The notes: generated by a model from the sequence alone, not told the origin. A stretch of DNA of 64,000 bases from a virus (IMGVR_UViG_3300024259_001623); one strand, 5' to 3'. Positions 30,126-56,243 are shown, counted from the first letter of the stretch. Program-made: numbers and translations.

Positions 30126-30709
30126 TAACTTCCTTTCTTTCCCCTATAATCATGAGCTTTATTAGCAGGATGGTTATAACACCATACATCATCATCATAA
30201 TATTTATTTATAGCATTCATTAAAAATATAATTTTTGATAAAGAAACAGGACTATAAGCATGCGCATCTATCCCGACATTGACCATATTCTTCTGAACCT
30301 TCCACAATCCATGAACATGACCACAAATGTTCCAACAATCTTTCTTCCCCTTTGTAGGATAATGATTCAAAAACATCTGCATTTTTTTGTTTTTCTGAGG
30401 CTTGATGTTCAACATTACATCTTCGCTAACAGACTCAAAATATTTCCTGTATTCATCATCAGGAATTTTGCCTTCGTGATTCCCCTTGATAAGATGCTTT
30501 TTACCATTCATATTAGAGACAACATCAAAAAACTTTTTGTCTGTTAATACATCTCCCAAAAAGAAAACTGTATCATCTTCCTTCACAAGACTATTATGTT
30601 TTTCAAGAATATCATTATTGAAATTCTCTACTGAGTCATAAGGTCTAAATAAAATATCAAATCTGTCATCTCCAAAATGATGATCAGAACAGAACCATAC
30701 ATTAGCCAC
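30107..30709 (-). CDS. Calcineurin-like metallophosphoesterase
   Basis: SDHHFG, FLGD, KGNHE, HYP and GHVH motifs. Confidence 0.9.
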   Translation of the reverse strand: MANVWFCSDHHFGDDRFDILFRPYDSVENFNNDILEKHNSLVKEDDTVFFLGDVLTDKKFFDVVSNMNGKKHLIKGNHEGKIPDDEYRKYFESVSEDVMLNIKPQKNKKMQMFLNHYPTKGKKDCWNICGHVHGLWKVQKNMVNVGIDAHAYSPVSLSKIIFLMNAINKYYDDDVWCYNHPANKAHDYRGKKGSYYDETE

Positions 30710-31478
30710 TATTCTTCTCCTTGTAACTCTTCATGAAGATATCTCCGTCTACAACCCATTTATCTTCTTTTTTCTCTTTATCTCTTAAAACGAAATCTCC
30801 ACATTTTCCCTTCATTCCATTAACTTCAAAGCTCCCTTCTTCAACAATCTCGACAGCCTCTACCTCTGAATACTTAGGCTTCCAAATCGTATAATCTCCC
30901 TTTACTCCAATCTTTTCGTATTTAGTTTCAACCCTCTTAGCCTTTTGAGGCCATGCTTCATCCATAACACCAATACAAATCAGATCATTCTCGTCAGCTT
31001 CCTGGTCCCCTTCCATTGTCTCTACATTGCCTTCGCTATTAACTAAACCCTGTTCTTTGGCCTTATCAAATGGTAATGTCTTCATAGTGGCAACTTTGTA
31101 ATAAGTTCCCCATAAATCTTCATCCGATAATACATCTGGCAGTTTCGACGCTTCTTTTCCTATCATCTCTTGATACTCCTTCTTGTCTTCCCTCGACAAA
31201 CAATATGTTGATAAAATCCACGTTAATAACTCTGTAGCTCGGCGAACCGCATAAAATTCTGTCGGCTCATGAACTCCAATTCTATCACCATCATTTGTCA
31301 CTACGTCCCAAAAACCATCTTCAGTTCTCTTTAAGTGAAAAAGATTTTTAGGCAATTTATGTTCTTTTCTTATAGATGGCAAAATCTTACAAGCGAATTG
31401 AGGGGTAAAATGTTCAGAGATATACTGTAGCAATGCACTGGATACAATATTCTTTTTAGCTACCTTGTACCAGTTCAT
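30702..31478 (-). CDS. MNWYK-tagged hypothetical protein with a C-terminal PGDYG-like domain
   Basis: Probable start MNWYKVAKK at 31478; C-terminal ETMEG...GDFVLRD...WVVDGDIFMKSY. Confidence 0.6.
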   Translation of the reverse strand: MNWYKVAKKNIVSSALLQYISEHFTPQFACKILPSIRKEHKLPKNLFHLKRTEDGFWDVVTNDGDRIGVHEPTEFYAVRRATELLTWILSTYCLSREDKKEYQEMIGKEASKLPDVLSDEDLWGTYYKVATMKTLPFDKAKEQGLVNSEGNVETMEGDQEADENDLICIGVMDEAWPQKAKRVETKYEKIGVKGDYTIWKPKYSEVEAVEIVEEGSFEVNGMKGKCGDFVLRDKEKKEDKWVVDGDIFMKSYKEKNSG

Positions 31479-32029
31479 TTTTGAGTACCCCAAAATTTCA
31501 TCTCCTGAGCATAGCTAGGTTCTGTGTATTTGGGGTATCTATTCCCGTAGATATTTTGTCTCCAATCCGGAGATGTTTTATAACGCTTAGAATAATTAAC
31601 GTATGGAATATTGGAAGCGACATTATCTTCAAGGTCAACATCATCTAATTTGTCACTTAAAATAGGCCAAAATATAGATGTAGGAGTCTCATTATCTATA
31701 AAATCACTCATAGTCTCAACAGCGATTTTCTTTATTTTATTATATACCTTCTTGGCCTTAGCAAAATCAGATTTATCGTATGTCCAATATCTATTCCACC
31801 CCAAAGACCCCAAAAATGCATGATTAATAACTACAGCAACAGCAATTTTCTCTTTTGTTTCAGATATGGATATTCTTATTGTATAAGCATCCATGACATA
31901 TCTCTGCAAATCAAACATGGTCATCCACTCTCCATCCTGATTTGTAGCAGCGGCGTCATCTTCACAATCGAATCTGCCAGATGCGGTCTTTACTACTCTC
32001 TTTTTAATATTATCTTTATACCAATTCAT
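31475..32029 (-). CDS. MNWYK-tagged hypothetical protein
   Basis: Starts MNWYKDNIKKRVVKTAS. Confidence 0.7.
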   Translation of the reverse strand: MNWYKDNIKKRVVKTASGRFDCEDDAAATNQDGEWMTMFDLQRYVMDAYTIRISISETKEKIAVAVVINHAFLGSLGWNRYWTYDKSDFAKAKKVYNKIKKIAVETMSDFIDNETPTSIFWPILSDKLDDVDLEDNVASNIPYVNYSKRYKTSPDWRQNIYGNRYPKYTEPSYAQEMKFWGTQK

Positions 32030-54359: not shown

Positions 54360-54737
54360 TTAAAATACTGCTTTAACGATATCTGGATACAATTCCATTA
54401 ATCGCAAGAAATCTTCGATACCTTGGCCCCATTCTGAAGACGCATAAAACTGATCTTCAACCCCAGTATTAGGAGGAACGAGTTTAACGAAATTACGAGC
54501 AATGAATCCTTTTAATTGTTCCATCCAATTCTCAGATTGCATAATACTTTGTAATTCTGCATCTAATTCAGGAAAATTCCTAGATTCTAATTTTAATAAT
54601 TCCAAAGCATCTACCAAAGCATTAGCATTTTCATCTTCTACTTCGGGCTGATTATCTTCTTGGAACTCATAATAATCTCGCTCCATTTGTTGATCACCAA
54701 AACTATCATAATATTGTGCGGTTTTTATTCTTTTCAT
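54360..54737 (-). CDS. Hypothetical acidic protein starting MKRIKTAQ
   Basis: 125 aa, AGGAG RBS. Confidence 0.65.
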   Translation of the reverse strand: MKRIKTAQYYDSFGDQQMERDYYEFQEDNQPEVEDENANALVDALELLKLESRNFPELDAELQSIMQSENWMEQLKGFIARNFVKLVPPNTGVEDQFYASSEWGQGIEDFLRLMELYPDIVKAVF

Positions 54738-54749
54738 TTTATCTCCTAT

Positions 54750-56243
54750 TTACATTTTATTGGCTTTTTCAGCTTGCTTAATCCAATCTTCCAAGGATAT
54801 ATTCATTCTTTTCTGCATTTGTTCATCTAATTCCTTCCGAATATCTTTTCTCCAACCAAAAGGAAAAATACCAGAATATCTGTATTCTACTTCTTTTTCA
54901 TATTCTTCCATAGCTTTTTCATATTCTTCATCATCTTCATAATCTGGCTCATATGGATATACAAGATCTGATTCTAGACTATCTAGATAATCGACATCTA
55001 GATAATCGACATCTAATGCTTTATTAAGCTCAAATAATAACATATCTATCCCTTCATCTTCTTCATCTACAGCCAAACGTACAATAATTTCTCCTAGTCC
55101 GCTATCTCCATCATATCCACCTTTACTACTCATTTGTTGAACCATATCATAAGCATTTTCATATGCCTGTGCAACAAACTGTATCTTGTTAGTATCAGTC
55201 TCTTTCTTCAAACCATATTCATCAAATTCCCCTTGGGATAAAAACTTATATGCATTTTCCCACTCTTCTATAACAGTACTTATACTTGTCCATGTCAAAT
55301 TAGATGATGCAAAGAAATCAGCAGGATCTACTTCTTCTTGCGACACAGAAGGAGAATTATCATCACTTGCTATCCAATGTCTAATAATATCTTTATATTC
55401 ATCTTTAGGCTCAGAATTAGATTTTCCATATATTTGTTTTATATATTTTCCCGTTTCATCTATTTCTATTGTGACATGAGGATTATTATCAGGATCCCTT
55501 AAAGAATATATAACCGATATACCTTCGGATACAGGACCACAGTAGCCACCAACACAATTGTCCATCTTGTTACCTTCAGCTTCCAAATCATTTTTAGATT
55601 GAACATCTTGAATAGTCCAACCATGCCACTCTTTTATATCTCTGCCCTCGGCATCTTTCCAAAATGGCCCCCAAACGACCTCACGATCTTTAGGATCATA
55701 TTCTCCTTCACCTTTAAAAGCAGTAGCATGCCATTCTGCTGACGCATCCAAAGCCCTATCTAAAGTATAACTATTCAAATCAGGCAATTCTTGTCTATAC
55801 CAGTCCAACATATTACGAATTTCATTTCCTCTGGGATGAGCAGCTTCCCGGTTAAACAAAAATAATTTTATTCTTCTTACATCTTCTTGATTATATATTT
55901 TTCCTTTTAACCCTAAATATTTATAAATTTCTAAAGAAAACCATCTTACAAAACGATCTAAAATATTTCCATACCCTATAACTGATGCTGCAAAATTCTT
56001 AGCCATATTAGTCAAATCTTTTTCCCAAGGACTTTTCCCTGTTTCTTCTGATTGATTAGCTATATTCTGTAATTCAACGAGAGTGATTTGAGGATTTTTT
56101 CTAGCTTCATTTGTTAATATATTAGCAATATTATTATTTGACACATCAAATGACATGATAAAATCTACGATATTTTGTGGCAGATTAAGTGTTGATAAAA
56201 AATCAATCCTACCAGCAGCTATGCATATTTTATACCAGTTCAT
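54750..56243 (-). CDS. PcfJ-like domain protein with an MNWYK tag
   Basis: SKNDLEAEGNKMDNCVGGY...IYSLRDPDNNPHVTIEI. Confidence 0.7.
   Translation of the reverse strand: MNWYKICIAAGRIDFLSTLNLPQNIVDFIMSFDVSNNNIANILTNEARKNPQITLVELQNIANQSEETGKSPWEKDLTNMAKNFAASVIGYGNILDRFVRWFSLEIYKYLGLKGKIYNQEDVRRIKLFLFNREAAHPRGNEIRNMLDWYRQELPDLNSYTLDRALDASAEWHATAFKGEGEYDPKDREVVWGPFWKDAEGRDIKEWHGWTIQDVQSKNDLEAEGNKMDNCVGGYCGPVSEGISVIYSLRDPDNNPHVTIEIDETGKYIKQIYGKSNSEPKDEYKDIIRHWIASDDNSPSVSQEEVDPADFFASSNLTWTSISTVIEEWENAYKFLSQGEFDEYGLKKETDTNKIQFVAQAYENAYDMVQQMSSKGGYDGDSGLGEIIVRLAVDEEDEGIDMLLFELNKALDVDYLDVDYLDSLESDLVYPYEPDYEDDEEYEKAMEEYEKEVEYRYSGIFPFGWRKDIRKELDEQMQKRMNISLEDWIKQAEKANKM

Follow-up and report, generated by a model that had tools for sequence, protein, structure and literature searches.

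The capsid targeting sequence (CTS) of phage T4, MKTYQEFIAE, is a peptide of ~10 amino acids (aa); otherwise diverse internal defence proteins have only this stretch in common, and the prohead protease cuts it once (10.1101/2021.01.19.427310; PMC3012670). Herpesvirus assemblins cut between Ala and Ser or Thr at the protease-scaffold junction (PMC4498786), and in the phiKZ-like and SPN3US giant phages one prohead protease trims many head-internal or ejected proteins at a short motif (PMC5694885, PMC10052503). ART, GNAT, 2H, and ParB domains are a hallmark of proteins thought to be packaged and injected by phages, including T4 Alt, P1 Dar/Ddr, and the polyvalent proteins (PMC5512222, PMC7824862). 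The subject here is the MNWYK tag, a short peptide that heads unrelated proteins in a 64,000-nucleotide stretch of viral DNA, IMGVR_UViG_3300024259_001623 (the window), and in its relatives. We consider the chances about even that this tag is a portable N-terminal head-loading peptide of phage-G-like megaphages, combining a T4-CTS-like address with an Ala↓Ser-type cleavage site (↓ marks the cut). Packaging, injection, cleavage, and the exact cut position of the tagged proteins are what we infer.

Bacillus phage G is a 498-kb megaphage. The window major capsid protein is 55% identical to phage G gp27 and has at least 115 relatives in IMG/VR, several of them on complete contigs of 461–548 kb. 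The window cREC protein is recorded on a contig of 434,625 bp. From these data, the window is part of an uncultivated phage-G-like megaphage. Identity is 70–93% among the 80 capsid relatives kept. The window has 34% G+C content and carries nearly all of its genes on the minus strand; it spans tail and accessory genes and reaches into the beginning of the head module (Table 1).

The MNWYK tag in the window and in related phages

The initial annotation had noticed four unrelated proteins starting with MNWYK, and their minus-strand ATGs lie exactly where it placed them, at 31478, 32029, 47932, and 56243. The degenerate DNA pattern ATGAAYTGGTAYAAR matches the window 4 times against 0.10 expected from dinucleotide shuffles, and 0 of 100 shuffles reach 4. 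An in-frame stop lies 0–12 codons before each ATG, and the four are true starts. The proteins encoded at 30702-31478 and 31475-32029 have no match to a Pfam or PHROG family. The PcfJ-like protein carries a degenerate internal copy of the tag, NAYKFLSQ, at residue 330; a search for loci related to this protein found none. Two K-x-A leaders reported earlier at 54737 and 46623 are both present, and other proteins of the DUF5661 family, to which the second belongs, start with MNWYKQAK or MKILKTAS in related phages. The window DUF5661 protein also has a perfect (GKGMM)n repeat in its middle. A third proposed leader, in the open reading frame (ORF) at 23117-26005, holds up in part: FNLKKSAD does stand near the start, and it does not include a strict K-x-A-[QST].

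Table 1. Leaders and capsid-region genes of the window.
Feature	Position	Strand	Remarks
Leader MNWYKVAK	31455..31478	-	Gene 30702-31478, 258 aa; ATG and the stop of the preceding gene overlap (ATGA)
Long-form leader MNWYKDNIKKRVVKTAS	31979..32029	-	Gene 31475-32029, 184 aa; ATG overlaps the stop of the upstream gene for a lipoprotein trypsin-like protease
Leader MRMQIIKTAK	46594..46623	-	DUF5661 protein 46048-46623
Leader MNWYKISYGSNG	47897..47932	-	Gene 47573-47932; cREC_REC domain (PF20274, E 1e-22) from residue 13
Second-class leader MKRIKTAQ (M-K-x-[IL]-K-T-A-[QS])	54714..54737	-	Gene 54360-54737
Leader MNWYKICIAAG	56211..56243	-	Gene 54750-56243, 497 aa, PcfJ-like (PF14284); two genes downstream of the major capsid gene
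Major capsid protein	58507..59379	-	Homologue of gp27 of Bacillus phage G
Putative capsid decoration protein	59460..60005	-	Named from its position relative to phage G gp26
Scaffold part of the protease-scaffold fusion	60034..64000	-	C-terminal 1,320 residues; ORF 60034-63957 open to the window edge

Genome-wide counts of MNWYK starts in relatives against background, as the initial annotation had advised, found the tag to be far commoner than first noted and, as a DNA pattern, essentially restricted to one clade. Four complete relatives of ~0.5 Mb have 12, 14, 7, and 1 ATGAAYTGGTAY starts, against 0–2 for a reversed control pattern. The full MNWYKKAQ DNA pattern occurs in 12 IMG/VR stretches, at least 5 of which are on contigs of the window clade and most others on large contigs. 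It has 2 matches in 596 Gb of bacterial and archaeal genomes, about the chance expectation, and none in phage G or in the 485-kb phage LR745208. No description of the MNWYK leader was found in the literature searched.

All DNA fetched yielded 92 distinct proteins with an M-[NS]-(N)-W-Y start. BLAST places them in 64 clusters, mostly singletons, once residues 1–10 are masked, and their genes often stand in tandem arrays in the relatives. As with the T4 CTS, a short N-terminal peptide is common to otherwise unrelated proteins of one phage. Among the 89 proteins starting M-[NS]-W-Y, position 1 is Met, position 2 is Asn in 82 and Ser in 7, and Trp and Tyr follow in all 89. Position 5 is Lys in 65, position 6 is Lys, Arg, or Gln in 66, position 7 is Ala in 41 or Ser in 15, and position 8 is Gln in 37 or Lys in 15, which gives the consensus MNWYK-[KRQ]-[AS]-[QK]. 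A long form of the tag has 1–10 extra residues ahead of [ILV]-K-x-A-[QS] (for example MNWYKRQLKIA). The motif [KR]-x-[AS] is matched in 78 leaders, 56 of which have the small residue at position 7.

The tag consists of 7–8 polar or basic residues, and domains of a cytoplasmic type (P-loop kinases and cREC, for example) come immediately after it. A Sec, lipoprotein, or Tat signal peptide was considered and rejected, as there is neither a hydrophobic core of at least 10 residues with a signal-peptidase site nor a twin-arginine motif.

Selection on the tag acts largely on the peptide. Synonymous variation in the tag DNA, a check proposed at the outset, is neutral at Tyr4 (TAC in 18% vs 17% in gene bodies) and at Lys5 (AAG in 22% vs 28%); three other codons are less even and are taken up below. 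Insertion variants of the tag exist (MSNWY, MNNWY). Stand-alone tagged proteins of the family we call DIGH (124–139 aa) align, from their residue 2 onward, with a domain at the C-terminus of larger tagged proteins, and three proteins keep the tag at a fusion junction with its Met gone (NWYKIAQ at residue 457, NWYKKSQ at 596, and SWYKQAQ at 635). The 120 homologues of the cREC_REC protein include 70 that begin directly at the domain (MKLWLDD...), 19 with MNWY-, and 1 with MNWF-, the tagged ones being mostly the closest relatives. Since most begin at the domain and some are tagged, the tag is an add-on.

Pfam domains were assigned across the 92 tagged proteins. HTH_7 or HTH_38 is found in 7 (some also with sigma-70 region 4), AAA_33 kinases in 4, and PolyA_pol nucleotidyltransferases, ART-PolyVal, PcfJ, 2H phosphoesterase/Acb1, and GNAT in 3 each. 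The cREC_REC, DUF5661, and HD domains are found in 2 each, and ParB_N also occurs among the leader-carrying cargo. In its ART-PolyVal, GNAT, 2H/Acb1, AAA_33, and ParB_N domains the cargo resembles known packaged effectors (PMC5512222, PMC7824862). Protein-atlas look-ups of two cargo proteins gave weak leads only (a PGDYG/DHHA1-like C-terminal domain).

Related phages of other lineages have leaders of their own. Phage G (NC_023719.1) has 14 ORFs with starts like M-K-(K)-R-L-x-K-K-A-[SN] and none with MNWYK. These MKRL-type leaders (for example at 28218, 35181, 207449, 244460, and 255160) stand on ParB-like, ferritin-like, ART-like, and deoxyribosyltransferase-like proteins. The 14 are gp13, gp38, gp53, gp57, gp284, gp296, gp334, gp346, gp347, and the ORFs at 65251, 73330, 178671, 446709, and 482110. 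LR745208.1, a 485-kb uncultured phage with 55% G+C content and a capsid protein 34% identical, has 7 ORFs with a 29-residue leader, MTTLRSKLIRLAH-x-NPALRP-x-LLPLLKEA, that ends in K-E-A in 5 of the 7 (for example 398171-398575, 389893-390948, and 14562-15269). The bodies of these 7 proteins are mutually unrelated, and 2 of the genes are in the head module, beside the capsid and protease genes. Families are common to the lineages: DIGH proteins are headed by MNWYK in the window clade and by the 29-residue type of leader in LR745208, and ART-like (HGT) proteins carry either an MNWYK or an MKRL leader. The prefix is thus lineage-specific and the K-x-A end common, the pattern expected if an address were joined to a site cut by a conserved family of proteases.

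Four cREC_REC homologues from other metagenomic phages (P0024, P0034, P0035, and P0016, the last at 10001-10360 of contig L155) have N-termini like MQTFKEFLQTME or MNFKIWLENQG. These resemble the T4 CTS, and a second protein of contig L155 starts with MIPTFQQWLME. N-termini of this kind may represent a T4-like tag carried by that cargo.

A candidate protease-scaffold protein and its K-x-A sites

The ORF at the window edge continues in relatives as a single protein of 1,800–2,300 aa, whose gene follows or precedes the portal gene on one side and the decoration and capsid genes on the other (for example L024:3776-9280 and L005:2419-9315). Its N-terminal domain of about 220 residues has His102 and Ser153 invariant among orthologues and shares 35% identity (E 2e-31) with phage G gp19, annotated as a head maturation protease. 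Phage G gp19 is given as detected by proteomics in one section of the particle study, and another section gives the maturation protease as not detected (PMC12484599). No match to the domain was found in Pfam or PDB sequence searches, and Pfam Peptidase_S78/S77 searches of the relatives and of phage G found none either, the S77 control failing too. An AlphaFold (AF2) model from 20 orthologues (mean pLDDT 70) was used for a fold search, in which T4 gp21 ranked first (5jbl, E 4e-4, probability 1.0) and herpesvirus proteases came next. The domain, which is encoded in the head module, is predicted from this model to have the T4 gp21/herpesvirus assemblin fold. The remainder of the protein is acidic, of low complexity, and scaffold-like. 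With a protease domain joined to this remainder, the edge protein is a protease-scaffold fusion; it also carries a zinc-ribbon-like Cys cluster. In the closest relatives an intein (Hint plus LAGLIDADG) lies inside the protease domain, giving the 2,298-aa ORF at L005:2419-9315 (+).

Richness of the scaffold in K-x-A had been noted in the initial annotation, and ORF 60034-64000 has 10 K-x-A-[QST] against 1.7 in composition-matched shuffles. Per orthologue (n = 55), the same comparison gives 12.4 against 2.5 for K-x-A-[QST] and 5.2 against 0.4 for a strict form with hydrophobic or Lys neighbours, an enrichment of 5- to 13-fold. The density is 6.1 per 1000 residues in the protease-scaffold vs 0.83 in the rest of a complete genome. 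One complete genome has 9 strict sites in the protease-scaffold and 3 in the next-best protein. Window sites from 63771, 63087, 62532, 62187, 61965, and 61851 are kept in 30–49 of 51–52 orthologues, in a scaffold part only 30–50% identical overall.

Conserved [IV]-K-T-A-S and K-K-[VI]-A-S motifs flank the protease domain. An N-terminal protease on a scaffold with conserved Ala-Ser at the junction is the architecture of herpesvirus assemblins. Phage G gp19 is likewise flanked by LVKTAA, EKVAS, and LLKIAS. The protease-scaffold itself begins M-x-x-[YK]-K-x-A-[TS] (MAIYKTAT, MAMYKKAT), a close cousin of MNWYKKAQ, and M-K-x-F-N-L-L-K-F-A-S heads a small protein encoded after the portal. Cleavage of the capsid protein at its VIAQ↓A was considered and dropped, as phage G has LISK↓A there. 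A complex predicted for the protease domain with the leading 36 residues of one tagged protein scored 0.01 and counts neither way.

Proposed head loading and alternative explanations

In the proposed mechanism, the tag would mark accessory and counter-defence proteins for entry into the assembling prohead, and the prohead protease would then remove it, with K-x-A plus Q, S, or T as its recognition site. Because the protease is fused to the scaffold, docking of the substrate on the protease would be the simplest loading route: the tag would dock on the scaffold-borne protease, ride into the prohead, and be cut there. Since assemblins with the same architecture cut Ala↓Ser or Ala↓Thr, cleavage is predicted at K-x-A↓[S/Q/T], a narrower site than the cut after K-x-A of the initial annotation; a cut at MNWYKKA↓Q would release a 7-residue propeptide. 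Address-plus-cleavage head loading, as first put forward in the initial annotation, is the best-supported explanation, and we would give it an even chance of being right. It draws on peptide-level selection, portability, the match of K-x-A-[QST] to the protease-scaffold, the gp21/assemblin fold, and the parallel leaders; the weak Shine-Dalgarno (SD) signals of tagged genes leave a role in translation beside it. A broader version is tentative and somewhat doubtful: a modular code in which a lineage address (MNWY-, MKRL-, or the 29-residue helix-like leader) joined to K-x-A↓S/Q/T docks on the protease-scaffold, so that dozens of interchangeable enzymes for counter-defence and host takeover are loaded, cleaved, and injected with the DNA.

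Several observations count against head loading. K-x-A-[QSTKN] lies within residues 4–22 in only 47 of the 92 tagged proteins, and the window leaders at 47932 and 56243 have a degenerate second half with no clean K-x-A-[QST]. The nucleoside deoxyribosyltransferase-like gene is tagged in phage G and untagged in the window. In some tagged proteins a transmembrane helix comes right after the tag, which is atypical for head cargo and fits ejection proteins. The tape-measure-like protein at 8061-12677 (-), of 1,538 aa, has 10 K-x-A-[QST] against 4.0 expected (P = 0.004); it may also be processed, or the motif may be favoured in Lys/Ala-rich helical sequence. Phage G gp346, which has an MKRL leader, was found in particle proteomics and is the sole leader protein named in the main text of that study (PMC12484599). 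Its detection is weak support for packaging, as a particle proteome of 104 of 668 ORFs that includes replication enzymes gives one positive little weight (PMC12484599). The codons of the tag are biased at Asn2 (AAC in 45% vs 23%), at Lys6, which prefers AAA, and at Ala7, which prefers GCA. A strong SD precedes 23% of tagged genes vs 47% of other genes (P = 1.5e-5), and 3 of the 4 window MNWYK genes lack an SD altogether and either adjoin the gene upstream or overlap it. The weak SD and the codon bias together point to some RNA-level role or constraint.

Of the alternatives, the one that survives best is a peptide signal for a machine other than the head, such as a docking peptide, a localisation signal, or an N-terminal ClpXP degron that limits the lifetime of toxic effectors. 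It would accommodate conservation mostly at the peptide level, a tag portable across 64 families and not conserved among orthologues, and tagged proteins that are membrane or DNA-binding HTH proteins; phage G encodes both ClpX and ClpP (PMC12484599). It leaves unexplained why the tag core is enriched at conserved positions in the protease-scaffold and flanks the protease domain, and why variants of the tag start the protease-scaffold and the small post-portal protein. We regard it as unlikely.

The tag could instead be a processing site only, with no address function: the maturation protease, or some other protease, would trim a short propeptide, and whether the proteins reach the head would depend on other means. 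The fixed distance of the Ala from the N-terminus argues against this, as do the strong conservation of N-W-Y ahead of the core and the long lineage prefixes (29 residues in LR745208), which imply wider recognition; a prohead protease is also normally active only inside the prohead. K-x-A-[QST] does occur at many internal sites and at fusion junctions, as a pure cleavage site would, and several non-MNWY leaders have only the K-x-A core in common. Processing without an address seems improbable to us.

A trypsin-like protease (Trypsin_2) with a lipoprotein signal (LSGC) is encoded at 32026-32784 (-), translationally coupled through ATGA overlaps to two downstream MNWYK genes. It was rejected as the processor of the adjoining MNWYK proteins, as its lipoprotein signal should place it outside the cytoplasm.

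In a third explanation, the role of the conserved 5' codons is translational: they would enhance expression, through the start region or the nascent peptide, of genes that have no SD and depend on coupling or on leaderless mRNAs. The SD deficit, the coupled window genes, and the codon bias at Asn2, Lys6, and Ala7 are all in its favour, and ATGAAY makes a TGA for the upstream frame. In about 18 of the 92 tagged genes a promoter-like element a few bases before the ATG can be added to these; the neutral synonymous sites at Tyr4 and Lys5, the insertion variants that shift the register, and the tags kept internally without a start codon in fused proteins speak for the peptide. Other lineages put quite different leaders on the same cargo families, an untagged TnpB-like gene (53112) has the same promoter arrangement, and the scaffold sites are left unexplained. 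Translation as the sole function appears quite improbable.

The promoter-like element reads AAAGGWTTT, ~14 nt, and GAAWWTATAAT ending 2–5 nt before the ATG, with no SD (L015:15620-15655 and L034:16578-16612; also window 53076-53111 (+), ahead of the TnpB-like gene). An element that abuts the ATG without an SD suggests leaderless mRNAs. By-eye comparison places a similar element, with a normal 5' untranslated region, ahead of the capsid gene. Weak SD and ATG-abutting elements leave room for a translation-level role beside the peptide role.

Least probable is a functionless scar of descent or of cassette recombination behind a common 5' end, for which the tandem arrays and codon identity at some positions could be cited, against a tag kept across phages with capsids 70–93% identical and on 64 unrelated bodies that diverge after residue 8, varying synonymous sites, and analogous but different leaders in two other lineages.

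If head loading is correct, the tag would give a sequence-only listing of the proteins (an injectome) that uncultivated half-megabase phages inject with their DNA. Among them would be ADP-ribosyltransferases, Acb1-like nucleases, RNA-repair kinases, acetyltransferases, and DNA-binding proteins, together with many families, of the 64, that have no assigned function. The T4 CTS principle would then hold in a distant group of phages whose protease differs in specificity (Ala↓Ser-like, as for herpesvirus enzymes), with the address evolving by lineage and the cleavage core constant. A 7-residue tag could also be of practical use for loading very large capsids with foreign proteins. Head loading is directly testable in phage G, which can be cultivated and carries a tag of its own.

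Other genes of the window and comparison with known systems

Further genes were identified in the window outside the head module. An actin-like protein of the Volactin family (PF25216, E 9e-57) is encoded at 18792-19907 (-) and has a homologue on the unrelated leader-type contig L155. Tandem paralogues of 798 and 962 aa at 20708-23104 and 23117-26005 (-) have near-identical C-terminal halves, and both start MSFE...KKFNL. The gene at 26049-27794 (-) encodes a PhoH-like ATPase split by an intein with a LAGLIDADG-type endonuclease, and its N-terminus, STRKIKKAT, also contains K-K-A-T. The TnpB-like gene at 53112-54236 (+) is the sole long plus-strand gene near the head module and was called by eye from a zinc-ribbon C-terminus.

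By sequence comparison the MNWYK tag would be analogous to the T4 CTS and not homologous with it. In each case a short N-terminal peptide (about 7–10 aa) stands on unrelated, fast-evolving accessory or defence proteins that include ADP-ribosyltransferases. The T4 CTS ends at the consensus site of its prohead protease, the MNWYK tag is predicted to end at that of a protease of the same fold, and the motif recurs many times in the scaffold core of both. The two have no sequence similarity (MNWYKKAQ vs MKTYQEFIAE), and the tag consensus has no Glu; the cut is predicted after Ala here (K-x-A↓S/Q/T), whereas T4 cuts after Glu. Unlike in T4, the protease is fused to the scaffold, and the cargo repertoire, known here from sequence alone, is far larger: it comprises at least 64 clusters, and a single genome can have 14 or more such genes.

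The protease-scaffold resembles herpesvirus assemblin/pUL26 in having an N-terminal serine-protease domain, predicted to be of the same fold class, fused to a scaffold, with a conserved x-A-S immediately behind that domain and more such sites along the scaffold. It differs in having Lys at P3, where herpesviruses have a hydrophobic residue, and in being much longer (1,800–2,300 aa), with a Cys cluster and, in some relatives, an intein. To our knowledge, herpesviruses do not put the cleavage site on accessory cargo as an N-terminal tag.

The processing motif of the phiKZ-like phages and SPN3US is (S/A/G)-x-E, and their propeptides are long and mutually unrelated. We know of no common N-terminal 7-mer address described for these phages. 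Polyvalent and MuF-fused effectors have the same ART, GNAT, 2H phosphoesterase, and ParB-like domains and are thought to be packaged and injected early (PMC5512222, PMC7824862). Their domains are strung together in a single giant protein or joined to a structural domain of the head, whereas the tagged cargo has one small gene per domain plus a short tag, and occasional fusions keep the tag at the junction.

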